From Patescibacteria group bacterium (GTDB taxonomy: Bacteria; Patescibacteriota; Patescibacteriia; Patescibacteriales; WJLG01), in contig JBAZHE010000001.1 in NCBI GenBank assembly GCA_041652555.1, forward strand, positions 66,847 through 130,846: a stretch of 64,000 bases of DNA, read 5' to 3'. Positions within the stretch are counted from its first letter, which is position 1; every line of letters begins with the position of its first letter. The notes under the pieces were generated by a model. It ran no database searches, was not told where the DNA came from, and was given only the letters and a program-made list of their open reading frames with translations. A program made the position numbers and the translations under genes. Shown here piece after piece: positions 3,535 through 18,651 of the stretch.

Positions 3535-4530
3535 TTAGATTATTTCCCAGCCGGTTTCTGTTTTAATAATACTTCCGTTTAATCGGAAGGCGGCGGCTTT
3601 TTTGTGGCCGCCGCCACCTAGTTTTTCGGCTAAGAGGGCGACGTTGATTTCGGGGAGTTTTGATCTTAAGCTTCCACGAACCACTCCTTTTTCTTCCTCT
3701 CTTAAAAATAAAGAGCCTTTTATTCCGTCTAAGTTGGTTATAATATCAGAGATAGCATCAAAGGCGCTATCTTCACCAAATTCTTTCTTTAGCTCAACAA
3801 CTTCCTCGTAAGTGAAAACTGAGCAAACTAAGTCGTATTTTTCATTGATGTATAGTTTTTCTAAAGCACGACCGATTATTTTCATAGCAGCGACTGATTT
3901 GCCTTCGTTGTTGCGCTTAATAATTTTGGGCATAGCCGCGCCGCGTAATAAAAGAGCTGAGGAAATTTTTACAGTTTCTTCGTTGACTGAACTGAAAAGC
4001 AAATTGCCGGTGTCAGTCATTATTCCGGCCAAAAGGCAATTGGCAGCTTTTTGCCCGATTTGAATATTATTGACAGTGAAAAAAAGATAAATAATTTCTG
4101 CGGCCGAAGAATGTTGGGGCAGGCGGATTTCCAGGTCGGAATAATTATCGGTTGGCGGGTGATGGTCGAATTCTAAAATAGTCTGATTTGATTTTTTTTG
4201 GACGATTTCATCAGCCAAACCGGTGCGCGTCAGAGCGCTACAATCAACTATAATAATTAAGTCAAAAGAAAAAAAATTAAATTTTTTTTTAGAGGTTATT
4301 TTTTTAAAATTCGGCAGAAAAGAAAAATGTTCCGGTGCTTGGTCGGCACAGAAAAGGTGGTAATTTTTACCAAGCTTATCTAGTAAGAGTGACAGAGCGC
4401 ACATTGAAGCTAGCCCGTCGCCGTCCGGCCGGATATGGGTGGCGACTAGGATGTTTTTCGCACTGCGAATTTTTTCTAGCGCTTGTTGAAATTTTTTAGT
4501 TAGGATTTCTTCGTTCATTTTTTGTGTCAT
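3535..4530 (-). CDS. nrnA: DHH/DHHA1 phosphoesterase (NrnA-like oligoribonuclease/pAp phosphatase)
   Basis: DGDGLAS, EFDHHPP and GGGGHKKAAAF motifs. An alternative start (MNEEIL, ATG complement ending at 4518) would sit outside the repeat element. Confidence 0.8.
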   Translation of the reverse strand: MTQKMNEEILTKKFQQALEKIRSAKNILVATHIRPDGDGLASMCALSLLLDKLGKNYHLFCADQAPEHFSFLPNFKKITSKKKFNFFSFDLIIIVDCSALTRTGLADEIVQKKSNQTILEFDHHPPTDNYSDLEIRLPQHSSAAEIIYLFFTVNNIQIGQKAANCLLAGIMTDTGNLLFSSVNEETVKISSALLLRGAAMPKIIKRNNEGKSVAAMKIIGRALEKLYINEKYDLVCSVFTYEEVVELKKEFGEDSAFDAISDIITNLDGIKGSLFLREEEKGVVRGSLRSKLPEINVALLAEKLGGGGHKKAAAFRLNGSIIKTETGWEII

Positions 4531-4596
4531 GCTGGCGAAGGCTGGTATCCAGTTTTACATAAGGACTATGGATCCCGGCCTTCGCCAGGATGACAC
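4524..4596. repeat. dRS3/NIME-like palindromic element, divergent copy (a)
   Basis: gtgtcatGCTGGCgaagGCTGGTatccag - 17 nt - ggatCCCGGCcttcGCCAGGatgacac. The left and right halves are mutually complementary. Confidence 0.7.
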
Positions 4597-4647
4597 CGTA
4601 GTTATATATTAAATGAATTATAAAGCATTTTTGGAAATTTGAAACTA

Positions 4648-4679
4648 TTGACAAAAGATAATTTAATATGTATTATAAT
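4648..4679 (+). promoter_or_regulatory. Sigma70-like promoter
   Basis: TTGACA (4648..4653), 17 nt, TATTAT, with TATAAT overlapping. Lies upstream of the 4740 ORF, which has an AAGGAG SD. Confidence 0.55.
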
Positions 4680-4739
4680 TATGGTTGCCAAATGAGTGTT
4701 TGGTAATTTTTGTTCATTTAATCAACAAGGAGTGAGCAC

Positions 4740-5084
4740 ATGTCTTTTTCTGGAGCAACTATCTTAGAAGGATCAGCCAATCGTACTGTCAATTTTTTTT
4801 ATGGGATTCGCGAAGTAAGCGAGGTTGGTAATGGTTTAACGATTAATCAATTCAAGGTATTAGCAAAAAAGGTATTGCTCAGTAATCATGCGGAAATCAA
4901 CGTGTTGATTGCAAAAGCTGAAAGAATATTTCCCAAAGAAATGGCTGGTTTCGATAATCTTTTATATATTCTTCATTCAGTGAAACGCAATTCGGTTGGT
5001 CTGTCCGGTAGCGATTATGAAAGACTTTTAAATAGGTCTTTCCGAAGGGCTGGTGCCAAACCGCACTTACCATTTTACAATTAA
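4740..5084 (+). CDS. Hypothetical protein
   Basis: 114-aa ORF with AAGGAG SD, own promoter and terminator. No motif recognised. Confidence 0.6.
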   Translation: MSFSGATILEGSANRTVNFFYGIREVSEVGNGLTINQFKVLAKKVLLSNHAEINVLIAKAERIFPKEMAGFDNLLYILHSVKRNSVGLSGSDYERLLNRSFRRAGAKPHLPFYN

Positions 5085-5097
5085 TTCTGTCTTATAG

Positions 5098-5127
5098 AGG
5101 TCGTCTCTCGTGCGGCGACCTTTTTTC
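5098..5127 (+). terminator. Rho-independent terminator
   Basis: aggtcgtc ... ggcgacct followed by tttttt. Confidence 0.7.
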
Positions 5128-5134
5128 ATGTCAA

Positions 5135-5163
5135 AAAATCACCTTTTTAAAAAAGGTGATTTT
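5135..5163 (-). terminator. Hairpin terminator at the end of rbfA
   Basis: aaaatcaccttttt / aaaaaggtgatttt palindrome, with A/T runs on both sides. Confidence 0.6.
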
Positions 5164-5545
5164 ATTTGTATTCTACTTCTTCCAGTTTGTCTATTTCTTC
5201 ATCTAGCATGGTTTCTATTTTTTTCATTTCTTCAAAGGCCTTATTCATAACGTTCACCTTTTTTTCTGTAGAGTCAAAATTCCATAGGAGCTTTGGTACT
5301 TTGCGAAAACGCATACGGTTTTTTAGTAACTTGGCGATATCAATAGAAGAAGTGCGCAGTTTTTCTAAAGCCGAACCAACGATATTGTCTGGTAAAACAG
5401 AGATATAAATTTTGGCTGTGGAAAAATTTGGATCACAGTTTACACTGGAAACAGTAATTAAACCGTCATAAAAATCAACCACTTCTTCTATGGCCAGGGC
5501 GATTTCTTTTCGTAGAGTTTCATTTAGGCGATCGATGTTCGGCAT
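5162..5545 (-). CDS. rbfA: Ribosome-binding factor A
   Basis: RbfA-like sequence (LRKEIALAIEE...AKIYISV...RFRKVPKL) immediately downstream of infB. Confidence 0.9.
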   Translation of the reverse strand: MPNIDRLNETLRKEIALAIEEVVDFYDGLITVSSVNCDPNFSTAKIYISVLPDNIVGSALEKLRTSSIDIAKLLKNRMRFRKVPKLLWNFDSTEKKVNVMNKAFEEMKKIETMLDEEIDKLEEVEYK

Positions 5546-7533
5546 TATAGTTTTGTAGTAATTTCTTTTTCTTCGTAAAACTGAACGATATCACCGACTT
5601 CAATTATCGGCTTGCCTTCGTATTGAATACCACACTCCTGGTCTTGTTCAACTGTCGGCACATCCATTTTTCCGGCTTGCACTTTAGTGACACGGCCGAT
5701 AGCGACAAGATCTTTGTTGCGTAAAACTTCTACTGGACAGTCATTTTTTATTTGTCCGTCCAGAACTTTGCCACCGACCACTTGGCTTTTATTCTCCGTG
5801 CGAAAAATCGCCAAAACTTTCAAGCGTCCGAGGTTGATACGCTCCTTGTTTTGGGGCATTATTTTTTGCATTTCGTCCTTGACGTATTTGATGAGATCGT
5901 AAATAATGGTAAAAGTTTTTGCTTCAACTTTTCTTTCGCGTAACAATGTTTCTATTTGCGGTGAAAGCCTGATATTGAAGCCAATTAGTTTAGCATCCGA
6001 CCCTTCGGCGCGAGTAATGTCGCCCTCGGTGATATTTCCTAAGCCCTTGCTAACAATTTTAACCATCACTTCCTCGGTATTTAGTTTCATCAGCGATTCT
6101 TCAATGGCTTCAGCCGAACCTAAAACATCACTTTTGATTATCAAATTTAATTTTTTGGCATTGTCGTTTTCAGCCTCTTCGCGGGCGGCCGAAGCAAGGA
6201 TTGGGCGGGCGGCTAATTTTTCTAAACCGCCTTTTACTCTTTCGCCTTCGCCGACTTCCACGACATCGCCAACGGCTGGTGCTATTTTGATGCCTAAAAT
6301 TCTCACCGGAGTAGAGGGAGTAGCTTCTTTTATTTCTTCACCTTTATAATTTTTTAGCGAACGGGCTTTGCCGATTATTTTTCCTTGCAAAATTATTTGG
6401 TCGCCGACACGTAAGGTGCCGTTTTGTACTAAGAGAGTAGAAATCGGTCCGGAATTTTTATCAACGCGTGACTCAATGATTGTGCCGATGGCATCAGAGT
6501 TGGGGTTGGCTTTCATGTTTTTTGCTTCAGCATCAGCGGTTAAGAGGATTAAATCTAAAAGTTCGTCAATACCAGTTCCGTTTAAGGCGGAGATTGGTGC
6601 ACAAACAGCTTTTCCGCCCCAGTCTTCGGGGAGGATATTTAATTTGTTTACCAAATCTTGTTTGGCTTTATTTAAGTCGGCAGTGGGGCGGTCAACTTTA
6701 TTGATGGCGACGATAAATGGTAGTCCGGCGGCTTGGATTATTTTGTAGGCCTCAATTGTTTGTGGTTGGACGCCGTCATCGGCGGCTACAACCAAAATTG
6801 CCACATCGGCGATTTTGGCGCCGCGTGAGCGCATAGCAGTAAAGGCTTCGTGTCCGGGGGTGTCAACAAAAGTTATCGGGCGGTTTTTGCGTACGACCTG
6901 ATAGGCGCCGATATGTTGGGTGATGCCACCGGCTTCTCCAGCCACAACATCGGTTTTGCGGATAGCATCCAAGAGTTTGGTTTTGCCATGATCTACGTGG
7001 CCCATAACGACAATTACCGGAGGACGGATGGATAAATTGCCTTCATTCTCTTGGTTTAAATTTTCTTCAACCTTTTTGTCATTATGAGTTTCTTTTTCTT
7101 CGTCAAGATTTTGTTTTTCGTCTAGTTGGATGTCAAAATTTAAGCTGTCGCCGATAATGGCGGCGGTATCAAAATCAATCCTTTCATTGATAGAGGCAAA
7201 AACGCCATTTTTCATTAATTCGGCCAAAACTTTATTAATCGGCAAGTTGGCTAAAGTGGCAAAGTCGCGCACGGCTAAAAGAGAGGGGATTTTTATGATT
7301 TTTTTCTCTGGGACCGCATCTTCAATTGCAATAACTTTTTCTTTGTCTATATTTTGAAAATCAGCTTGTTGAAGTTTGCGCACCAAAAAAGGCCATTCGC
7401 GTAAAATTCTCTGTGCCATCACCAAATCAATTTTAATGGCTTTTTGCCCAATATCAAACCCCAGCTTCGGGAGTTTTTCCCGCAGGTCGTTTGGGGTGAT
7501 TTTTAGAATTCTAGCGAGTTCAGTTACATTCAT
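5545..7533 (-). CDS. infB: Translation initiation factor IF-2
   Basis: GTPase motifs [13 protein letters not shown] and NKVD, plus the conserved IF-2 C-terminal domains. Confidence 0.95.
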
Positions 7534-7785
7534 AGTTTTTGTATAAAATAAAAATCCCTTTTAAGAATTGTTTTAATCTTACCGCTTTTTTTTTATTAAG
7601 TCAAATAATGCTAAGGATTTCGTACACTTCTTTTTTATCCACAGTTGCGGGGAGCTTGAAAATTTATTATAATATAATTTTGAAAGTAATTTACTAATTT
7701 ATAAGTTTGGAGGTAATTATAAATTTTTATTTTTTATTTTGCGGAAATAGTAAATCGTTATTTATTTTCAAACAGTAAACAATTT

Positions 7786-10103: not shown

Positions 10104-10955
10104 TTACAATAAGTCTTTAATTTTATCAAATTGCGTGACAGCGACTTTAGTATAAATTTGGGTTGTTTCCAGGCGTTCGTGTCCGAGTAAGGATTGGATA
10201 TAGCGAATATCTAGACCACTTTCCAAGAGGTGAGTGGCGAAGCTATGTCGGAAAGAATGAGGGGAGACCGGTTTATTTAAGCCGGCTTTTTTTGTATTTT
10301 GACTGACAATCGCTTGGATTGTTCGTGTTGTTAGACTGCCTCCGCGCATTGATTCAAAAACATATTCCAGCGGTTTGAATTCAGCTAAATATTTTTCAAT
10401 ATTTCTTAAAACAACCTTAGAAATAATTGTAACTCTATCCTTGGCACCTTTTGCGCCCTTGAGGTGAATAATCTTGCGATTAAAATTGATGTCATTAATT
10501 TTCAAGGAAACAACTTCACTGACGCGCAGGCCAGAACAGTAGAGTATTTGAATGATTAGTTTGTGCTTAATATTGTTGCAGGCATTAATAATATATAAAA
10601 TTTCTTTTTTAGAAAGCACGACTGGTAGTTTTTTGTCTTTTTTGGCACGTGGGAGGTTGAAGAAAAATTTACGATAAAGGATTTTTTCAAAATAAAATTT
10701 CAAAGCACTATAAGCGGTGTTTAAGGTGGAAGAAGAAAGTCCTTTGTCGCATAAAGATTCCAAATAATTTCGAATATGCCCATTTGTGATTTCTTTGGGG
10801 TTTTTACTTGCAAAATTCAATATTTCAGTGATATAATGCAGATAGGATTTGATAGTTTTTTGGCTAAATTTACGCAACTTCATTTCTTGTTTTAGCCCAA
10901 AAATCGGATCTTTGCTTAAATATTGATAGTTTTCTTGTAAAAAGTTTCCATTCAT
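10104..10955 (-). CDS. Tyrosine site-specific recombinase (Xer-like, SAM-like N-terminal domain); candidate cassette recombinase
   Basis: Catalytic set: R in SGLRVSE, K in KGAKDR, HSFRH, LGH, Y in QIYTKV. 283 aa. About 58 residues lie between the KDR and HSFRH boxes, so there is no IntI-type insertion. Confidence 0.9.
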   Translation of the reverse strand: MNGNFLQENYQYLSKDPIFGLKQEMKLRKFSQKTIKSYLHYITEILNFASKNPKEITNGHIRNYLESLCDKGLSSSTLNTAYSALKFYFEKILYRKFFFNLPRAKKDKKLPVVLSKKEILYIINACNNIKHKLIIQILYCSGLRVSEVVSLKINDINFNRKIIHLKGAKGAKDRVTIISKVVLRNIEKYLAEFKPLEYVFESMRGGSLTTRTIQAIVSQNTKKAGLNKPVSPHSFRHSFATHLLESGLDIRYIQSLLGHERLETTQIYTKVAVTQFDKIKDLL

Positions 10956-11008
10956 ATCTTTATTATGATTAGAAAATTATATTAATATTTTAACTAATTT
11001 AAAATAAA
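10921..11008. repeat. Direct repeat copy 1 (recombinase 5' codons plus upstream region)
   Basis: tattgatagttttcttgtaaaaagtttccattcat...ttttaactaatttaaaataaa recurs at 11694..11781, roughly 80 percent identical by eye. Confidence 0.8.
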
Positions 11009-11054
11009 GCGACAATCATTTTGTATCAAGATTTGTATGGTCTCTCCGTGTCTC

Positions 11055-11086
11055 TTGACAGTAGTATCGTGATACGATATTATAAT
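11055..11086 (+). promoter_or_regulatory. Putative higBA promoter with palindromic operator
   Basis: TTGACA (11055..11060) and TATAAT (11081..11086). The spacer is long (20 nt) and contains the inverted repeat GTATC-GT-GATAC. Confidence 0.45.
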
Positions 11087-11094
11087 TGTAGGTT

Positions 11095-11376
11095 ATGATA
11101 AAAAGTTTTAAATCCAAAGAGGCGGAGAAGATTTTTAACCGAGGATATTCTTTAAAACTTCCGTCCGATATTCAAAGAACGGCCCTACGCAAATTATCAA
11201 TGATTCAAGCGGCTATCGCTATTAATGATTTACGGATACCGCCAGCTAACCATTTAGAGCTATTAAAAGGCGATAAGTGTGGTCGGTACAGCATTAGAAT
11301 TAATGATCAATGGAGAATTTGCTTTGTTTGGCAATCGGGGGATGCCTATGAAGTTGAAATAGAAGATTATCATTAA
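11095..11376 (+). CDS. higB: HigB toxin (RelE/ParE superfamily, plasmid maintenance system killer)
   Basis: 93 aa with the typical HigB pattern (FKSKEAEKIF...HLELLKGDKCGRYSIRINDQWRICF). Toxin-first order, with HigA downstream. Confidence 0.88.
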   Translation: MIKSFKSKEAEKIFNRGYSLKLPSDIQRTALRKLSMIQAAIAINDLRIPPANHLELLKGDKCGRYSIRINDQWRICFVWQSGDAYEVEIEDYH

Positions 11377-11390
11377 AAAATTACAACAAT

Positions 11391-11693
11391 ATGATAAAGA
11401 AAATACAGCCAATTCATCCAGGTGAAATTTTGCAAGAGGAGTTTTTACTACCTTTTAAGCTTAGCCAGTATCGCCTGGCTAAGGATATTGCCGTGGCTCC
11501 AATCAGAATTAGTGAAATAATCCGCGGTTCGCGTGCCATCAGTGCTGATACTGCGTTGCGTTTGGGAAAATACTTTAATGTTTCGCCGGAATTTTGGCTA
11601 AATTTGCAGTCGCACTATGAGCTAGCTGTGGAAAGTGAGGAGTTAAGTGGAGTTCTAAAAAATAAAGTTAAGGTTTTTGAATTCGCTGTTTAG
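11391..11693 (+). CDS. higA: HigA antitoxin (XRE-type HTH)
   Basis: HPGEILQEEFL...LAKDIAVAPIRISEIIRG...TALRLGKYF, a HigA-family HTH. Confidence 0.88.
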   Translation: MIKKIQPIHPGEILQEEFLLPFKLSQYRLAKDIAVAPIRISEIIRGSRAISADTALRLGKYFNVSPEFWLNLQSHYELAVESEELSGVLKNKVKVFEFAV

Positions 11694-11781
11694 TATTGAT
11701 GGTTTATTGTAAAAAAATTTCCATTCATACTCCAGTATGATTAGAAGTTTGTATAATAATTTTAACTAATTTTAAAATAAA
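11694..11781. repeat. Direct repeat copy 2, including a 12-codon remnant of the recombinase 5' end
   Basis: The minus strand reads ATGAATGGAAATTTTTTT... (MNGNFF..., stop after 12 codons). Starts right at the higA stop codon. Confidence 0.8.
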
Positions 11782-11790
11782 TAACAACAA

Positions 11791-11829
11791 CTTCGCATAT
11801 ACCTTGTTCTACGAAATAAATTTTTTATC
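11791..11829 (+). other. Array-proximal junction: solo right arm (L'-like plus GTT box plus extended arm) of an attC-like site
   Basis: cttcgcatatacctt-GTTCTACG-aaataaattttttatc. The outer 24 nt match the reverse complement of 12587..12610 at 22/24 positions. Confidence 0.65.
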
Positions 11830-11962
11830 TAGTCGGTAATTTTAAGCTTAGTGATTTGAATGGTGACAGAAATTTTAATTTTTTTTATTAATTCAATAGG
11901 GGAAATAAGGAGTTTTTTCTGCTCTCGGAAGTCGCAGAAAAAATAAGTTATCAAAATTATTT

Positions 11963-12100
11963 ATGAATAAAACGTGGCATTTAAAAAATAAAATTCCAGC
12001 CAAAGCAACATTGGAGCAACGAATAGATTGGCACAAAAATCATCAAAAGTATTGTGCGTGCCGAGAGGTGCCGAAAAGTTTATTAAAATATTTTAAATAA
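11963..12100 (+). CDS. Small Cys-containing protein (45 aa), below the ORF-track cutoff
   Basis: MNKTWHLKNKIPAKATLEQRIDWHKNHQKYCACREVPKSLLKYFK, preceded by AAGGAG plus a hairpin leader. Lies 16 nt upstream of the VOC gene. Confidence 0.5.
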   Translation: MNKTWHLKNKIPAKATLEQRIDWHKNHQKYCACREVPKSLLKYFK

Positions 12101-12116
12101 ATTAAACAACAATTTT

Positions 12117-12476
12117 ATGATTAAAGATTATGACAATTTTTTCTTGCCCGTGAATAGTCTGGATGAGGCTAAACTGTTTTACGGCCAGACACTTGGTCTT
12201 TCTGTGAAATTTGATTTTTCTGATGCGGGGATGACTGCTTTTAAAGTCGGTGACCAAGAGCCGGCAATCATCGTAAAAGATATTAAAAAATTTCCCGACG
12301 CAAAAGTAACTACATGGTTTGTGGTGGATGATGTTCTGATTGAGTACAAAAATCTTAAAGAGAAAGGAGTTTCTTTTTTATCAGAACCATTTGAAATTTA
12401 TACTGGTTTGGCTGCGGAATTTGAAGATCCATTTGGCAATAGATTGGGAATTACCGACTATTCAAAGAAAAAATAA
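12117..12476 (+). CDS. VOC/glyoxalase-bleomycin-resistance family protein
   Basis: 119 aa with the single beta-alpha-beta-beta-beta module pattern (FYGQTLGL...FEDPFGNRLGI). Confidence 0.8.
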   Translation: MIKDYDNFFLPVNSLDEAKLFYGQTLGLSVKFDFSDAGMTAFKVGDQEPAIIVKDIKKFPDAKVTTWFVVDDVLIEYKNLKEKGVSFLSEPFEIYTGLAAEFEDPFGNRLGITDYSKKK

Positions 12477-12482
12477 TAAGGA

Positions 12483-12533
12483 GTTTTGAAAAAATGGAAT
12501 TCACCCCTAACCCCTCTTCCATTTTTTTAAAAC
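12483..12533. repeat. Cassette 3' hairpin (GTTTTGA...TCAAAAC stem, conserved 17-nt loop)
   Basis: gttttgaaaaaatggaa / ttccatttttttaaaac around the loop ttcacccctaacccctc. Confidence 0.75.
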
Positions 12534-12586
12534 AAAAAATTAAATTTTCTTAGATGCAGTCTCAAATTTAGTTTAACAAAAATCGA

Positions 12587-12748
12587 GATAAAAAATTTAC
12601 ATCGTAGAACAAGGAATATCTGGTTCAATAATTTTTCAATATAGATTACAATAAGGAATAAAAAATTATTTCACCCATATTTTTGCTCCGCTAACGCTGC
12701 GCAAAAACATCAGATATTCCTAATAGTTGTCTGAAATATTTTTTTGTC
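12587..12748 (+). repeat. attC-like site J2 (162 bp)
   Basis: R''-like cgtagAAC (AAC 12608..12610), inner arm aaggaatatctg, loop of about 88 nt, cagatattcct, then GTTgtctg (GTT 12726..12728). Confidence 0.7.
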
Positions 12749-12832
12749 TTTAGCGGTAATTTAAAATTTTGGTGCATTGAACAAAGACGAAAATTTGATT
12801 TTTAATTTATTTAAAGAGGGGTAAAAAGGAAT

Positions 12833-13417
12833 ATGTTTCAATATATAGTTTTAATCGGAGCGGTCGTGCAGTTGGTTGGTGTATTTGTTTATATTCGAGC
12901 AACTGTTCGTGGCGAAACAAAACCGAATAGAGTCACTTGGTTAATGTGGTCTGTGGCGCCATTGATTGGATCTGTTGCAGCTTTTTCTGACGGCGTTCGT
13001 TGGGCGGTGCTTCCAGTTTTTATGTCTGGTTTTGCGCCACTGCTTGTTTTTATTGCTTCTTTTGTAAATCCCAAATCATATTGGAAGCTTGAAAAATTTG
13101 ATTATGTTTGTGGAGCTTTTTCAATTTTGGCATTAGTACTTTGGGGGATTACAAAAGAACCATTGATTGCGATTATTTTTTCAATCGCCAGTGATGGATT
13201 TGCGGCAGTGCCAACTATTATTAAATCTTGGAAACATCCAGATTCTGAATCCGTCGAAGCTTACACTACTGGGTTGTTCAACTCATTAACAAGCTTTTTT
13301 GCACTGAGAACATTTGGTATTTCAGAATTGGCCTTTCCAATATATTTAGTTTTGGTAAATTCGTCATTGATTGCCGCTGTTTATAAAGGGCGATTGAAAA
13401 AAATAATCGCAAAATAA
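12833..13417 (+). CDS. Multi-pass membrane protein, unknown function (cassette ORF)
   Basis: 194 aa with about 6 hydrophobic helices and an AAAGGA SD. Confidence 0.7.
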   Translation: MFQYIVLIGAVVQLVGVFVYIRATVRGETKPNRVTWLMWSVAPLIGSVAAFSDGVRWAVLPVFMSGFAPLLVFIASFVNPKSYWKLEKFDYVCGAFSILALVLWGITKEPLIAIIFSIASDGFAAVPTIIKSWKHPDSESVEAYTTGLFNSLTSFFALRTFGISELAFPIYLVLVNSSLIAAVYKGRLKKIIAK

Positions 13418-13420
13418 GGA

Positions 13421-13471
13421 GTTTTGAATTTTTGGCATTCACCCCTGACCCCTCTGCCAAAAATCCAAAAC
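13421..13471. repeat. Cassette 3' hairpin, second copy
   Basis: gttttgaatttttggca / tgccaaaaatccaaaac around the loop ttcacccctgacccctc. The stem sequence covaries relative to the other copies. Confidence 0.75.
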
Positions 13472-13523
13472 AAAAATCAAATTTTCTTTTAGAATAACCA
13501 AAGTTTGTGCCAATAAAATAGAA

Positions 13524-13743
13524 GACAAAAAAATACATCAGACAACACGGCACATGCGGTTCAGAAATTTTGCGCAATTATAATTCAAGGTATGCAAAAT
13601 TTCTTCTCCCAAATTGCGCTGACGATATGGCAAATTTGGTGATATAATCAAGTAAAGCGATAATTAACAAGTTCAATCAATAATCCACGGCGCAACTTCG
13701 CATGTGCCGAAACGTTATACGCAATTCAAAAAATATTTTTCTG
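13524..13743 (+). repeat. attC-like site J3 (220 bp)
   Basis: cagacAAC (13544..13546), inner arm cggcacatgcgg, loop of about 130 nt containing TGaTATAAT, then cgcatgtgccg and GTTatacg (13714..13716). Confidence 0.7.
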
Positions 13744-13865
13744 ATAATAAGGAGTTTTGATAGGCAAAAAATAAGAATAAATTTGTTTTTTATTTAATTT
13801 AACAGGGGAACAAGGTGTTTTCTCCGCTCCGCCACAAAAACGATTTATTAATTTACATTTGAAAT

Positions 13866-14507
13866 ATGGCGTCAGAAAATTTTGAATTGAACCAAAAACC
13901 GGAAGTAAGCATTAATTTAATAGAGAGAATCGAAAAATTAGAAAAGATTAAAACTCCAGAAGAATTATTGTCGTTCATGAAAAAGAATATAAATTATGGT
14001 TTTATTGGTAAAGACGACGATAAAGTATATTCTCCTCGGCAAGAAGGCTGGGGTGTAGGAAAACAACCGGAAGCAAGATTACAAAGTCCTGAAGAACTTC
14101 TGAAAAGTGGTTATGGGGCTTGTTGGGAACAGACGGATTTTGAAAAACAATGGTTTGCGAAAAATAATTTTGAGTTTAAAACCCTCCTTTTGATGTTTGG
14201 AAAAGATATCAGTCAAAAAAATCCAGCCCATACGTTGTTAGCATATAAAAAAGACGATAAATGGCACTGGTTTGAAAACACACTCGATAAATATAGCGGA
14301 ATTTATGAATTTGATGATTTAGAGGATTTAATTGAGTATGCCAAAACAGTACTTATAAATAATGCTTTTAATAATGGGGCTACAGAAAACGATATTAAAG
14401 AATATAAATTGTACGACTATGATATGCCAGCATATGGCTGTAGCACTGATGAATTCATTGGGAAAATAAAATTAAATTCTAGAAATCAGGAAAGAAAAGG
14501 AAAATAA
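13866..14507 (+). CDS. Hypothetical protein with a possible transglutaminase/papain-like Cys-His core
   Basis: GYGACWEQTDF ... HTLLAYKKDDKWHWFENT. The C/H/polar spacing resembles a transglutaminase-like fold, but the assignment is weak. Confidence 0.6.
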   Translation: MASENFELNQKPEVSINLIERIEKLEKIKTPEELLSFMKKNINYGFIGKDDDKVYSPRQEGWGVGKQPEARLQSPEELLKSGYGACWEQTDFEKQWFAKNNFEFKTLLLMFGKDISQKNPAHTLLAYKKDDKWHWFENTLDKYSGIYEFDDLEDLIEYAKTVLINNAFNNGATENDIKEYKLYDYDMPAYGCSTDEFIGKIKLNSRNQERKGK

Positions 14508-14600
14508 AGGAGTTTTGGAAAAAAGGAATCCGTTATTGTATTTTTCGAAAGATCGAAATCATGATAAAATATAGATAAAGTCGAACTAATCTCAATATTC

Positions 14601-15434
14601 ATGACAAAGAAACAAAAAATAAAAGTTGAAGGTATTGAAATAGTCACTTTTACCAAAGATAATAGCGATTATATTTCTTTAACCGATATTGCAAAACATA
14701 AAAATTCAGAGGCCGGCTTGGTTATTTCCCATTGGCTAAGCACTCGTTTTGCCATTGAATTCATGGGGATATGGGAAAAAATGAATAATCCCAATTTTAA
14801 AGTTACTGAATTCAGTAACTTTAAAAATCAAAGCGGCGCCAATGGTTTTGTATTGTCTGTCCAGCAATGGGTCAATAAAACTAGCGCTATTGGAATTTTT
14901 GCCACAAGAGGGCGCTATAATAGCGGTACTTTCGCTCACAAGGACATTGCCTTTGAATTTGCTTCTTGGATTTCAGCGGAATTTAAGTTTTATCTCATCA
15001 AAGAATTTCAGCGATTAAAGGAAGATGAAAATAACAGGCAAAAGTTAGAATGGAATCTCCAGCGAACACTGGCAAAAATCAACTACAAAATTCATACCGA
15101 TGCCATAAAGGAGAAATTAATCCCCCTTGAATTAACCAAGGAACAGATTAATATGGAATATGCCAGTGAAGCGGATTTGCTCAATGTTGCATTATTCGGA
15201 ATAACCGCAAAAACGTGGCGAGATCAAAATAAAGAATTAGATGGAAACATTCGAGATTATGCCTCAATTGAACAGTTAGTGGTTCTGTCTAATCTTGAAA
15301 GTATAAACGCATTGTTAATTCGCGAAGGATTTTCCACTGAAGATCGGATTCAAAAATTAAATAGCACCGCGATAATTCAGATGAAATCGCTTTTAATAAA
15401 CACTGAAATAAAAAAATTGGAATCGCCAAAATAA
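14601..15434 (+). CDS. KilA-N domain-containing protein
   Basis: The N-terminal 130 aa match the KilA-N pattern (YISLTDIAK...W...FAHKDIAFEFASWIS), followed by a coiled C-terminal half. Confidence 0.8.
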   Translation: MTKKQKIKVEGIEIVTFTKDNSDYISLTDIAKHKNSEAGLVISHWLSTRFAIEFMGIWEKMNNPNFKVTEFSNFKNQSGANGFVLSVQQWVNKTSAIGIFATRGRYNSGTFAHKDIAFEFASWISAEFKFYLIKEFQRLKEDENNRQKLEWNLQRTLAKINYKIHTDAIKEKLIPLELTKEQINMEYASEADLLNVALFGITAKTWRDQNKELDGNIRDYASIEQLVVLSNLESINALLIREGFSTEDRIQKLNSTAIIQMKSLLINTEIKKLESPK

Positions 15435-15446
15435 AAACAATAAGGA

Positions 15447-15497
15447 GTTTTGAAAAAACGTAATTCACCCCTAACCCCTCTTCCGTTTTTTCAAAAC
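15447..15497. repeat. Cassette 3' hairpin, third copy
   Basis: gttttgaaaaaacgtaa / ttccgttttttcaaaac around the loop ttcacccctaacccctc. Confidence 0.75.
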
Positions 15498-15550
15498 AAA
15501 AAAATCAAATTTTCTTATACGTAAAGCAACGCCAGCTCAATAAAAACCAA

Positions 15551-15711
15551 GATAAAAAATTTACATCGTACAACAAGGAATATCTGGTTCAATAATTTTT
15601 CAATATTATTTATAATAAGGAACAAAAAATTATTTCACCCATATTTTTGCTCCGCTATCGCTGCGCAAAAACATCAGATATTCCTGACTGTTAGGCGTAA
15701 TTTTCACTTTT
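15551..15711 (+). repeat. attC-like site J5 (161 bp) ending in the canonical core GTTAGGC
   Basis: 15551..15685 differs from 12587..12721 at about 7 of 135 positions. Identity stops just before GTTAGGC (15690..15696). Confidence 0.75.
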
Positions 15712-15736
15712 AAGAAGTCGCCTTTAATAAATACAT

Positions 15737-16405
15737 ATGATTTACTTAAAACAATTAATCATCATTATTCCCGCCTTTGCTGTTCTATTGTATCTAACAA
15801 CTGGATACAAGATACTTAGGCCATTTCGTAAAAACCAAATGAAAGAATTGGCGGAAAAGCTAAATCTTGAATTTGTTGGAAATGAAAAACGCAGTTGGAA
15901 AGAACGATTTTTTAGCTATTCTGTTAAAAAAAATATTATTCGTGGAGAATACAACAATAAAAAAATTGAAATTTTTGACTTTGATTCAATATTGAAAAAT
16001 GCTGTAAATCCGATTACCAACGCTGTAATGACCTATTATTATGGGAAAAATCCAGTCCATATCACCTATATAAATGGGAAAATATATAAAGATAAATATT
16101 TACCATACCTTAACATTAATAAAATTGAAAAATTGATAAAAGATGAAATTTCGTTAACCGAATATGATAAAATATTTTTTAACAAAGGTGTATTTCTGCT
16201 GACTTTATTAACATCACTTTGTATAACTTCAGTAATTGGATATTATTTTTATGCGTTTTATTCGGTTAGTCTAACAAAAATTTTAATTTTTTTAGTGCCA
16301 ATTAGCTTAATAGTTGCATATTTCTGCTACAGAATAGCTAAAAAATCTGGATACAAGGTTTTAATAAAAAATGATCCAAGAGAAGTGGCGACTTCTAAAA
16401 AGTGA
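15737..16405 (+). CDS. Membrane hypothetical protein (cassette ORF)
   Basis: 222 aa with an N-terminal TM and two C-terminal TM helices. No motif recognised. Confidence 0.6.
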   Translation: MIYLKQLIIIIPAFAVLLYLTTGYKILRPFRKNQMKELAEKLNLEFVGNEKRSWKERFFSYSVKKNIIRGEYNNKKIEIFDFDSILKNAVNPITNAVMTYYYGKNPVHITYINGKIYKDKYLPYLNINKIEKLIKDEISLTEYDKIFFNKGVFLLTLLTSLCITSVIGYYFYAFYSVSLTKILIFLVPISLIVAYFCYRIAKKSGYKVLIKNDPREVATSKK

Positions 16406-16492
16406 AAACTTGCTCCGCTATCGCTCCGCACCCCGCCGCGCTCTCGTTCCGCTACGCTCCACTCGGGACGCCTAACACCGAATATGAGGTTC
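16397..16492 (+). repeat. Left arm of the last attC-like site (J6), with canonical GCCTAAC and a 58-nt GC-rich insert
   Basis: aaaagtgaaaac + insert + acGCCTAAC (16470..16476) + accgaatatgaggttc. Complementary to 15690..15711. No matching right arm found downstream. Confidence 0.6.
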
Positions 16493-16646
16493 AAAAATTT
16501 GCCTTAACGAAATATAATAATGAACGCAAATTTTTTCATCCAAATCTAATTATGACGCAAAACAATGAGTTCATTCCATTCTGGAATATGCTGTCCGTGA
16601 TGATTAAGGCATTAGATTGTTTAAAAACTAAGTTAAATATACAATT

Positions 16647-16701
16647 TTGACCAAATTCCTTAATATGGTATTATGTAAATAATTAACTAAACCATATTAA
16701 G
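16647..16701 (+). promoter_or_regulatory. fic promoter (TTGACC-16-TGgTATTAT) overlapped by an 11-bp inverted repeat
   Basis: TTGACC 16647..16652, TATTAT 16669..16674. Inverted repeat cttaatatggt (16659..16669) / accatattaag (16691..16701). Confidence 0.55.
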
Positions 16702-16708
16702 CATTTTT

Positions 16709-17671
16709 ATGACTTACTTATCATTAATTGTAAAAAATCGTTTGGAAGAAAAATTGTCTAAACTTAACAAACTTCGTCCATTACCGAAATCAGCAGTGCA
16801 AAAACTTCGGGAAAAATTTCAAATTGAGATGACCTACAATTCAAACGCCATTGAAGGAAACTCTTTAACCTTAAAAGAGACCTTTTTGGTTATAAATGAG
16901 GGTATAACAGTGAAAGGAAAACCTTTAAAAGACCACTTGGAAGCAAAAGATCACCATGCCGCACTAGAATATTTATATGATTTGATAGATAACGACAAGA
17001 AGCACACCGTTTCCGAAATGCTTATTAAAAACTTACACCAAATTATTTTGCAGGAAACAGACAAGGAGTGGGCCGGCCGATATAGAAACGCCAATGTAAT
17101 TATTGGCGGCGCCGATCATACTCCACCGGATGCGTTACAGGTACCGAATAAAATGAGGGACTTAGTTGCTTGGCTAAATTCACAAAAAAGCAAGCTGAAT
17201 ATTGTTGAGCTTTCCGCCTTGTTGCATCATAAATTAGTTCACATTCATCCTTTTTTTGACGGCAATGGCAGAACAGCACGTTTGACAATGAATTTGTTTC
17301 TAATGCAAGCCGGATACCCGCTGGTGGTAATTATGAAAACCGATCGAAAAAAATATTATGATGTGCTGGATAAAGCAGATAAGGGCAAATATGAACCGCT
17401 GATAAAATTCATTGCTCAATCTGTTGAGCGTTCCTTGGACATTTATCTAAAAACATTAACGCCGGTAACACAAAAACAGGAGAAATTTTTGACGCTTGCG
17501 GAAATAGCTAAAACCACCCCTTTTTCCGCGAAATATTTAAACTTACTATCTAGACAAGGTAAATTAGAAGCATACAAAGAGGGCAGAGATTGGTTAACCT
17601 CAAAAGAGGCTATTGAAAGGTATTTGAAGAACAGAATACGGCAAAGAAAAAATAAAATCGCCAAAAAATAA
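16709..17671 (+). CDS. Fic family protein (AMPylase-type motif) with C-terminal HTH
   Basis: Fic motif HPFFDGNGRTAR. The C-terminal LTLAEIAK...YLNLLSRQGKLEAYKEGRDWLT looks like an excisionase/MerR-type HTH. Confidence 0.9.
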   Translation: MTYLSLIVKNRLEEKLSKLNKLRPLPKSAVQKLREKFQIEMTYNSNAIEGNSLTLKETFLVINEGITVKGKPLKDHLEAKDHHAALEYLYDLIDNDKKHTVSEMLIKNLHQIILQETDKEWAGRYRNANVIIGGADHTPPDALQVPNKMRDLVAWLNSQKSKLNIVELSALLHHKLVHIHPFFDGNGRTARLTMNLFLMQAGYPLVVIMKTDRKKYYDVLDKADKGKYEPLIKFIAQSVERSLDIYLKTLTPVTQKQEKFLTLAEIAKTTPFSAKYLNLLSRQGKLEAYKEGRDWLTSKEAIERYLKNRIRQRKNKIAKK

Positions 17672-17715: not shown

Positions 17716-18651
17716 TTATTTTATCAGTTTTGCCAGATTGCCTTCTTTGGTTTGGATATAGCGATAAGCGCCCAGAGCGGCGACCGTGCCGGCTCCGGCC
17801 GCGACCGTGATTTGTTTGTATGGATTAGTTGTCGCGTCGCCGGCGGCGAAAAGTCCAGACATGGAAGTTTCGCCATGTTCATCTATGATTATTTCTTTGC
17901 GACCGTTTAATTTTATTAAGCCTGCAACTAAATCAGTTTTTACTTCAAAGCCGATTTCAACAAATATTCCGTTAAGATTAATTTCGGAAGATTCACTTGT
18001 CTTCTGATTTTTTATTTTTATTTTTTCTACTTTATTACTTCCTAAAATTTCTTCCACCTTGTTTTCCAAAATTATTTCAATATTTGGCGTGGCGCGAACT
18101 TTTTTTTCTAAAGCCTCAAAAGCTTGAAAGACTTCAAATTGATGAATAAGATAAACTTTGCTGGCGATTTTAGAAAGCATTTCTGCGGAATCTAGCGCGC
18201 TATTCCCGCCACCGACAACCGCGACAATTTTGTTGCGGAAAAGCGGGCCGTCGCAATTGGCGCAGTAAGCCACGCCTAAGCCGGCAAAATCATTTTCACC
18301 CGGCACGCCAAGCTTGCGTCGATCACAACCTAGGGCGGCGATGACAGTTTTAGCTTGGAAAGTTTCTTCGCCCAAGGTGATGGAAAAATTTTTATCAGCA
18401 TTTTTTTCTAATTTTTCCACTAAGCCTAGTTTTATTTCCACGCCCAAAGATTTCACCTGCTCTTCCATTTTGGCGATTAATTCTAAAGCAGTTATTTCTT
18501 TGAAGGCCGGATAATTTTCAATTGTGGAAGCCCAGATCATTTGTCCGCCAACATGACGGGTGATGAGTAAAGTTTTCATTTCGCGTCGTGCGGCATAAAT
18601 GGCTGCTGTGAGACCAGCTGGTCCGCCACCGATTATGATAGTATCGTACAT
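17716..18651 (-). CDS. trxB: Thioredoxin-disulfide reductase
   Basis: IIGGGPAGLTAA FAD motif, redox CANCDG, GGGNSA NADPH motif. Confidence 0.93.
   Translation of the reverse strand: MYDTIIIGGGPAGLTAAIYAARREMKTLLITRHVGGQMIWASTIENYPAFKEITALELIAKMEEQVKSLGVEIKLGLVEKLEKNADKNFSITLGEETFQAKTVIAALGCDRRKLGVPGENDFAGLGVAYCANCDGPLFRNKIVAVVGGGNSALDSAEMLSKIASKVYLIHQFEVFQAFEALEKKVRATPNIEIILENKVEEILGSNKVEKIKIKNQKTSESSEINLNGIFVEIGFEVKTDLVAGLIKLNGRKEIIIDEHGETSMSGLFAAGDATTNPYKQITVAAGAGTVAALGAYRYIQTKEGNLAKLIK

Follow-up and report, generated by a model that had tools for sequence, protein, structure and literature searches.

Can a gene-cassette array of the integron type be organized around an ordinary Xer recombinase and a dif-like site? 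The question is raised by a locus in a 64,000-nucleotide stretch of DNA from a Patescibacteria group bacterium (GenBank assembly GCA_041652555.1, contig JBAZHE010000001.1, positions 66,847 to 130,846 of the forward strand; the whole stretch is referred to below as the window). A preliminary description, made from the sequence alone, had read this locus as an integron-like platform of short cassettes beside a tyrosine recombinase gene. That reading proves largely right, apart from one gene pair, higBA, which had been counted as a cassette, and from the recombination sites, whose halves are here refined to dif-like sequences. We consider it probable that the locus is a chromosomal cassette array anchored at a dif-like site of the host Xer, and that its folded single-stranded sites are recombined by this enzyme. 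Arrays of this kind recur across genomes and metagenomes of the candidate phyla radiation (CPR). At the level of sequence, the case is carried by the anatomy of the sites, their covariation, the matching ends of the cassettes, the breakpoints and the presence of the same cassettes in different contexts. The elements of the array are as follows, a slash in G/TT or AA/C marking the point of exchange.

xer, 10104–10955, minus strand: 283-aa XerA-like tyrosine recombinase (Pfam PF00589 and PF13495)
attI, the dif-like 28-mer, 11790–11817, plus strand: match to the right-half hidden Markov model (HMM); crossover G/TT at 11806/11807
Cassette A, 11807–12726, plus strand: leader, 45-aa Cys-rich open reading frame (ORF; 11963–12100), vicinal oxygen chelate (VOC)/glyoxalase gene (12117–12476), hairpin 1 (12483–12533) and site 1
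Site 1, 12599–12737, plus strand: left half 12599–12626 (R''-L''), right half 12707–12737 (L'-R'); AAC 12608–12610, GTT 12726–12728
Cassette B, 12727–13714, plus strand: protein with six transmembrane segments (6-TM; 12833–13417, 194 aa), hairpin 1 (13421–13471) and site 2
Site 2, 13535–13725, plus strand: left half 13535–13562, right half 13695–13725; AAC 13544–13546, GTT 13714–13716
Cassette C, 13715–15690, plus strand: transglutaminase-like ORF (weak match; 13866–14507), KilA-N ORF (14601–15434), hairpin 1 (15447–15497) and site 3
Site 3, 15563–15701, plus strand: left half 15563–15590, right half 15671–15701; AAC 15572–15574, GTT 15690–15692
Cassette D, 15691–16560, plus strand: 222-aa membrane protein (15737–16405) and truncated site 4

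The 28-mer at 11790–11817, ACTTCGCATAT-ACCTTG-TTCTACGAAAT, is an imperfect palindrome of 11-6-11 geometry. A dif site is defined by two 11-bp imperfect inverted arms around a 6-bp centre (PMC2958812). At least 17 CPR loci have a 28-bp site of this kind some 75 nt upstream of xer, and their Xer proteins are 53–89% identical to that of the window; in the window itself, higBA separates the site from xer. The left arm and centre are conserved, and the right arm reads TT-NNNN-(G or A)AAAT, where NNNN is variable. The CPR site resembles dif of Escherichia coli, GGTGCGCATAA-TGTATA-TTATGTTAAAT. Comparison of related strains, proposed in the preliminary description as a check on cassette-level variation, bore it out: where the recombinases are 75–89% identical, the side carrying xer, rnhB and infB is kept and the cassette side is wholly different. 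Homology of loci L001–L009 to the window runs as far as 11808 or 11817, where it breaks off at the GTT of the attachment site; such a break at G/TT was seen in six related loci. Past this GTT the gene content is unrelated even where Xer is 89% identical.

The sites between cassettes are made up of two inverted halves, with an AAC-to-GTT distance of 48–297 nt (median 109). The left half follows the pattern ACATC-NNNN-AAC-A-(4–5 nt)-AT-NNNN-G-GTTC and is, on its opposite strand, dif-like with 11-6-11 geometry; the right half follows AC(A or T)TC-NNNN-AT-(4–5 nt)-(3–4 extra nt)-G-TT-NNNN-GAAAT and is dif-like with a centre of 9–10 nt. AAC and GTT are nearly invariant across sites. The non-coding modules of the window measure, in order, 356, 448, 93, 302 and 303 nt, and their conserved blocks are confined to the array locus within the 64 kb. 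The order AAC, inner arm, 88–140 nt, inner arm, GTT, already recognized in the preliminary description, is true of three sites, the fourth being truncated, and the core pair GTTAGGC (15690–15696) and GCCTAAC (16470–16476) was verified. The length of 157–220 bp once given for the sites is reached only with the extended arms counted; from AAC to GTT, the range overlaps and exceeds the 57–141 usual for attC. Site 1 has a three-way junction in its centre, between the two halves, and a repeat search aligned it with site 3 at 91% identity across 159 nt. In site 4 the left half (16469–16492) and sub-hairpin A are kept, with a match to the left-half HMM and none to the right-half HMM, and the recognizable array ends here.

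The two inner arms of a site change together. Over 24 sites and 11 pairs, compensatory changes were found in 10 of the 11, and 92% of cells were paired, compared with 19–40% in slid controls. RNAalifold, run unguided, recovered the inner stem and a covarying sub-hairpin; sites 1 and 2 fold on both strands into a stem with two sub-hairpins, in line with the folded sites expected from the preliminary description. Mismatches within the stems comprise 23 G.T and 27 A.C in 1,173 stem pairs, a pattern that is not RNA-type. Structure at the RNA level was considered and is disfavoured by the equal G.T and A.C counts and by the lack of any terminator excess. A scan of 10900–16800 against Rfam at a permissive E-value gave chance-level matches only, and a consensus promoter scan found 31 matches versus 26.3 in shuffles, which is no excess; long conserved leaders precede each gene.

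A further hairpin, hairpin 1, starts at the stop codon of the last gene of each cassette (..ATAAGGAGTTTTG..). It has a freely covarying 17-bp stem and an invariant 17-nt loop, TTCACCCCTAACCCCTC, with copies in the window at 12483–12533, 13421–13471 and 15447–15497. To judge from its sequence, the loop resembles an anti-Shine-Dalgarno element, and it is complementary to AGAGGGG just 5' of cassette start codons. Hairpin 1 was also considered as a gene for a small peptide; this was rejected, as start codons and frame are not conserved and the stem covaries.

If exchange takes place at G/TT, the bases that follow TT travel with the downstream gene and should pair with the R'' of the same cassette in an excised circle. 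Among 32 curated cassettes, drawn from nine loci, 26 have four variable bases after G/TT that exactly complement the four before AAC; in 100,000 permutations, exact ends numbered 2.3 on average and 11 at most. Independent, automatically called metagenome cassettes gave 24 exact ends out of 41 (permutation mean 3.0, maximum 11). Between neighbouring cassettes of an array, the same positions pair only 42–75%. Over bases 13–60, the cassette's own end ranks best of 32 candidates in 19 cases, and the duplex of a 3' end with its own 5' end has a mean of −24.1 kcal/mol, versus −9.4 with the 5' end of the neighbour. The complementarity of about 20 nt beyond the core that the preliminary description had claimed is real and goes further, up to about 100 nt between 5' leader and 3' trailer.

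Within the window, the ends of cassette A (GTT CTAC GAAAT and ACATC GTAG AAC; arm duplex −22.9 kcal/mol versus −10.4 with the neighbour), cassette B (GTT GTCT and AGAC AAC) and cassette D (GTT AGGC and GCCT AAC) are exact complements. In cassette D, a further inverted repeat pairs 15701–15722 with 16387–16408. The ends of cassette C (ATAC and GTAC) match at three of four positions, and its arm duplex is no better than that with the neighbour. It has a degenerate 93-nt trailer between the transglutaminase-like and KilA-N ORFs, and its 5' leader is 82% identical to that of a different, 7.4-kb cassette in L001. From these sequences, cassette C is probably two fused cassettes.

Sharing of cassettes at the DNA level is rare among the collected loci (three weak pairs), and the evidence for mobility was therefore taken from protein-guided look-ups and from a gene-less cassette. 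The look-ups found the 6-TM cassette in other contigs at 89–91% DNA identity. It recurs there with other neighbours and homology ends at G/TT, as the preliminary description had proposed for cassette reordering. In L163–165 it follows a cassette encoding Vsr and a 917-aa protein, and homology to the window stops at 13717, the G/TT of site 2, beyond which there is a different cassette. The ends of these copies read AGCT and AGCT, where the window has GTCT and AGAC, and the inner arms have changed with them; such joint change implies that pairing is maintained within one cassette lineage. In L159 (7894–8733), the 6-TM cassette stands alone after rpsM-rpsK-rpsD-rpoA-rplQ-rplM-rpsI; its homology starts at G/TT and its 3' site is truncated. 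Before the cassette stands ATTTCGGATAAAAAACCA/GTT, apparently a secondary dif-like target.

The gene-less cassette is GC-rich and 203 nt long. Seven copies occur in L001 (8164–8407 and 9705–9948) and L007 (five, within 3685–7418), with related forms in L008 and L017. Identity among the copies begins and ends at G/TT within seven different flanks, one copy lying in the site next to xer. This mini-cassette has its own fully paired site, sits at the G/TT junctions of AT-rich arrays and has the behaviour of a minimal, selfish cassette. In every case the variable centre of the upstream site is left with the upstream cassette and does not travel with the insert, as would be expected from cleavage confined to the right-arm side.

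The recombinase passes the NCBIfam model for XerA (NF040815) with 249 bits against a cutoff of 220. It fails those for the integron integrase (TIGR02249; 205 bits, cutoff 265) and NF011946 (133 bits, cutoff 435), each of these matches being split into two stretches. Its closest solved structures are archaeal XerA (PDB codes 4a8e and 5hxy), followed by IntI4 (PDB code 2a3v); it is colinear with 4a8e. The absence of the IntI-specific segment, asserted earlier, was confirmed, since residues 192–202 of the query stand opposite residues 183–236 of IntI4, leaving about 43 aa without a counterpart. The window encodes no second tyrosine recombinase. Relatives keep the downstream order xer, rnhB, infB, rbfA, DHH protein, trmD, ftsH, and the database holds thousands of Patescibacteria homologues at 57–60% identity; the exact protein is labelled Patescibacteria there, in agreement with the earlier guess of a CPR-like host. 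On the basis of this synteny and ubiquity, we read the recombinase as the ordinary Xer of these organisms; it is probably not a dedicated integrase. The preliminary description had allowed that it might simply be the chromosome-dimer resolvase acting at a dif site elsewhere. The enzyme does look like a housekeeping Xer; the dif-like site, however, is the attachment site of the array and does not lie elsewhere.

How might such an array work? Each cassette would carry a composite site formed by two inverted dif-like halves. On a single strand the halves would pair, so that the inner arms and the two ends of the cassette form one dif-like duplex with a bulged centre. Xer on the right arm would then exchange one strand at G/TT (AA/C, bottom strand), with a folded site as one partner and, as the other, either the dif-like site beside xer in double-stranded form or a second folded site. 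Replication would resolve the product. The outcome would be cassettes that are inserted, excised and reordered as in integrons, on the same substrate principle as CTXphi attP(+). In the established geometry of Xer and dif, G/TT is the cleavage position of a right-arm-bound Xer-type enzyme. We infer a single-stranded substrate because there are two kinds of covariation, unlike central regions, one-sided breakpoints and no RNA-type wobble; which strand exchanges is likewise deduced. Double-stranded insertion through the 11-6-11 left half, in the manner of integrative mobile elements exploiting Xer (IMEX), was rejected, as the genes would point opposite to the direction observed.

Several observations weigh against this mechanism. 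Recombination as such is an inference, and its catalysis by Xer is deduced from the neighbouring position of the gene and the geometry of the sites. Over the 64-kb window, cumulative GC skew climbs monotonically, with no switch near 11.8 kb; archaeal-type Xer systems need not be linked to the terminus. Six curated cassettes (of 32) and 17 automatic ones (of 41) have inexact ends, in some cases probably through missed sites or fusions. The end complementarity of 60–100 nt goes far beyond what a recombinase needs, the z-scores of the folds are modest (−2.2 to −3.3) and alike on both strands, and the model assigns no function to hairpin 1 and its invariant loop.

Other explanations would account for part of the evidence. 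Double-stranded Xer modules of the Acinetobacter pdif type would undergo two-strand exchange between replicons (fusion and resolution, or inversion) with no folding, and the array does recall them: dif-like sites in inverse orientation, with like arms facing inward, enclose each of its gene units, the left half has canonical 11-6-11 geometry, and toxin–antitoxin (TA) and other accessory genes are typical pdif cargo (PMC7399989, PMC12907356). Double-stranded sites, however, need neither covariation of their halves nor complementary cassette ends, both of which are strong here, and inverted double-stranded sites are unable to excise a circle. Unequal central regions among the sites make classical two-strand exchange on double-stranded DNA unlikely; a direct-orientation half with a 9–10-nt centre also misfits it, and breakpoints fall at one edge of the central region only. 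We regard this explanation as unlikely, if the least so of those weighed against folded sites recombined by Xer.

Somewhat less likely still are non-autonomous inverted-repeat elements moved by an unlinked transposase, HUH nuclease or integrase, for which the position beside xer would be a preferred target. Long inverted repeats terminate every cassette, hairpin 1, whose loop is invariant and whose stem covaries, is like known substrates of single-strand nucleases, one lone cassette lies far from xer (L159), and some insertion sequence (IS) families are reported to target dif sites (PMC10132070). Yet no such enzyme gene was found in any array examined, the junction is exactly where a right-arm-bound Xer-type recombinase would cleave, the halves resemble dif, and wherever sequence exists beside xer, the conserved site there forms the first junction. 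We give very little weight to immobile regulatory or structural palindromes (processing sites, attenuators or terminators) that spread by duplication in an ordinary variable region. The structures do all lie on the coding-strand side of the genes, the hairpin-1 loop is anti-Shine-Dalgarno-like, and complementarity of leader and trailer could act within mRNA. There is, however, no Rfam match, no G.U enrichment and no terminator excess, and the G/TT breakpoints, the mini-cassettes in seven contexts, the changed neighbours and the dif-like geometry would be left unexplained.

If folded sites are indeed recombined by the host Xer, how close is the array to systems already described? As in integrons, the cassette genes all run in one direction, divergently from the recombinase gene, and are short, unrelated and often impossible to annotate, with TA or defence genes among them; the attachment site lies beside the recombinase gene, and all sites and cassette genes point away from it. 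The R''-L''...L'-R' order with AAC and GTT, the covarying stems with variable loops, the crossover at G/TT with the first bases of the cassette complementing its own R'', the gene-less cassettes and the homogeneity of site sequences within a lineage are also shared. Unlike in integrons, the recombinase of the CPR array is an Xer that lacks the IntI-specific segment and is encoded among conserved housekeeping genes. Its attachment site is a dif-like 11-6-11 palindrome and its half-sites are full dif-like sequences rather than 7-bp boxes. Cassette ends are complementary over 25–100 nt, the sites have a conserved three-way junction at their centre, and each stop codon is followed by an additional conserved hairpin; the consensus scan identified no common promoter. 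The array is thus not an integron, because its integrase is not IntI, and it is integron-like in every respect that can be tested at the sequence level.

The closest mechanistic precedent may be attP(+) of CTXphi as much as attC. The attP1 and attP2 sequences of this phage, inverted, 90 bp apart and with unequal central regions, are used by XerCD as folded single-stranded DNA (PMC4246890). CTXphi attP(+) and IMEX resemble the CPR cassettes in being elements without their own recombinase at a dif-type site, where they accumulate in tandem; with attP(+), the CPR sites further share two inverted dif-like sequences with unequal centres (6 versus 9–10 nt here) and the capacity to pair in single-stranded DNA. 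In contrast to CTXphi, the CPR units are single-gene cassettes without phage, replication or morphogenesis functions, many different units being present in one array. Both halves persist in the array, so that re-folding and excision look possible, whereas CTXphi integration is irreversible. One XerA-like recombinase would take the place of XerC and XerD, with exchange probably on the right-arm (XerD-position) side.

Acinetobacter pdif modules are alike in carrying accessory genes, TA pairs included, bounded by a series of inversely oriented Xer-type sites. They differ in residing on plasmids, with XerC/XerD-type sites and one site between neighbouring modules; the CPR array is chromosomal and anchored by xer, there is a single Xer, and two sites and a structured spacer lie between genes. 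To our knowledge, the definition of pdif includes no folded-site covariation and no matching-end rule. The XerS/difSL, XerH/difH and archaeal XerA/dif systems share with the CPR loci the use of one Xer protein. We know of no cassette arrays at the sites of these three systems. The 28-bp dif-like site directly upstream of the CPR gene has a counterpart in difSL, which adjoins the xerS gene (reviewed in PMC5357621). Thermococcales dif sites, by contrast, are reportedly not adjacent to xerA (PMC2958812). The CPR site differs from those of all these single-Xer systems in that its right arm changes with the first cassette.

The literature searched, in which subscription journals are thinly covered, holds no description of such CPR arrays or of Xer-anchored integron-like arrays. 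Tentatively, and with rather less confidence than the array itself commands, CPR bacteria may run an integron-type system on their housekeeping Xer and dif, with a dif-like site as attI and a folded double dif as attC; this could be an independent invention or a surviving transition form between Xer and IntI, without the IntI-specific domain. Integrons are regarded as dependent on the extra domain of IntI, and their origin from Xer-like ancestors is treated as an open question (PMC4792948, PMC7790495). Were this interpretation correct, the cassette-array strategy would not be tied to IntI, and a natural system would be at hand for testing Xer on folded single-stranded sites. The arrays would also represent a major route of gene exchange and strain variation in CPR/Patescibacteria, which have tiny genomes and few recognized mobile elements, and would account for the frequent breaks of CPR assemblies immediately upstream of xer. 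Further components of the system are suggested by the gene-less mini-cassettes and by the invariant loop of the hairpin.

An nhmmer search with a site profile gave 28 copies, spread over 10 loci that include a Komeilibacteria metagenome-assembled genome (MAG) whose Xer is only 45% identical; every copy lies upstream of xer, and their orientation is the same. The hairpin-1 loop ATTCACCCCTRACCCCTCT has matches in at least 120 metagenome contigs (L039–L158 among them); 95 of the hairpin-loop contigs listed carry dif-like sites downstream on the same strand. Strong xer homologues in contigs found through the cassette motif were upstream of the cassettes and divergent in all eight of eight cases. 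A check for phage carriage found a single contig in a viral collection with the cassette hairpin motif (L166, IMGVR_UViG_3300001335_000566), which may be either CPR sequence wrongly classed as viral or a phage that carries a cassette.

In the window, the ORFs of the preliminary description are all present where it had placed them. Pfam supports its assignments of Phage_integrase with SAM_4, HigB, HTH_3, Glyoxalase, KilA-N and Fic, the match of the transglutaminase-like protein being weak; the 45-aa, 6-TM and 222-aa proteins matched no Pfam family. Elsewhere the cargo includes GmrSD-Schlafen, several DUF families, major facilitator superfamily (MFS) proteins, a methyltransferase, TA pairs and many proteins without a family. 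No recombinase, transposase or HUH nuclease gene was found among the cassettes of the arrays examined. Three further features lie beside the array or between it and xer, the last of them a possible member of the array.

Duplication copy 1, 10916–11008, no strand assigned: 93-nt direct repeat of the xer 5' end and promoter region; copy 2 at 11689–11785
higB (11095–11376) and higA (11391–11693), 11095–11693, plus strand: HigB-like toxin and HTH_3 by Pfam
Fic/DOC protein with HTH_17 domain, 16709–17671, plus strand: Pfam; downstream of the truncated last site

The HMM scan of the window found no site 3' of the Fic gene, and trxB starts at 17716 on the opposite strand. The placing of higBA among the cassettes did not survive: the pair sits between xer and the attachment site, bracketed by the two copies of the duplication (10916–11008 and 11689–11785), which takes in the initial 40 nt of the xer reading frame. 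In relatives, the match to the distal copy continues to 11808 or 11817, whereas that to the proximal copy stops at 11008. A strong sigma-70-like promoter of its own, TTGACA-17-TATTAT, precedes higBA at 11055–11083, and the HMM scan found no dif-like site on either side. Given its own promoter and its position within duplicated xer sequence, higBA does not count among the cassettes of the system. The insertion is missing from relatives.

Breaks in assembly lie 70–470 nt upstream of xer in L003, L004, L005, L006, L009, L011, L012, L015, L016, L018, L019, L020 and L025, and two of these many contigs from independent assemblies stop inside the 28-bp site. CPR assemblies appear to break systematically at this locus, as population-level heterogeneity would cause them to do. 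When contigs were checked for circular molecules, three had terminal overlaps, two of them explained by GC-rich repeats. The other, L057 (FLOH01001630.1, 10040 nt), has a 125-nt terminal overlap that starts at a site GTT, has no xer and holds at least four cassettes with matching ends (MFS, methyltransferase, DUF4395 and a TA-like pair); it may be a 9.9-kb cassette circle or an assembly artefact. The MAG records L007, L008, L009, L015 and L020 are titled 'uncultured Gammaproteobacteria bacterium'. L007–L009 share 67–80% identical DNA with the window, the Xer proteins of L015 and L020 are 53–55% identical, and gene order in all five is as in the window where sequence exists. The titles are probably a labelling error in the deposited records.

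In some R'' arms, a GC-rich insertion of about 55–60 nt (CT.GCTCC...CCCCGC.GCGCTCTC...) takes the place of ACATC. It was found in cassette D of the window (16409–16468, 60 nt), in L001 (20600–20655 in window orientation), in L007 and in L008. The 5' arms that match such an R'' read G(T, C or A)(A or C)AT in place of GAAAT, which suggests a second class of cassette end. Cassette leaders have in common an element, ..TTTATTTAATT.A.AGGGGAA.AAGG.GTTTT-(CTCCGCT.CGC loop)-AAAAC GATTTATT, located at 11881–11940, 12800–12832 and 13786–13850 of the window and at 7483–7568 and 9590–9675 of L001; by its sequence, it resembles a degenerate second form of the stop-codon hairpin. The loops within the sites also contain repeats of the motif CTCCGCTACGCT.

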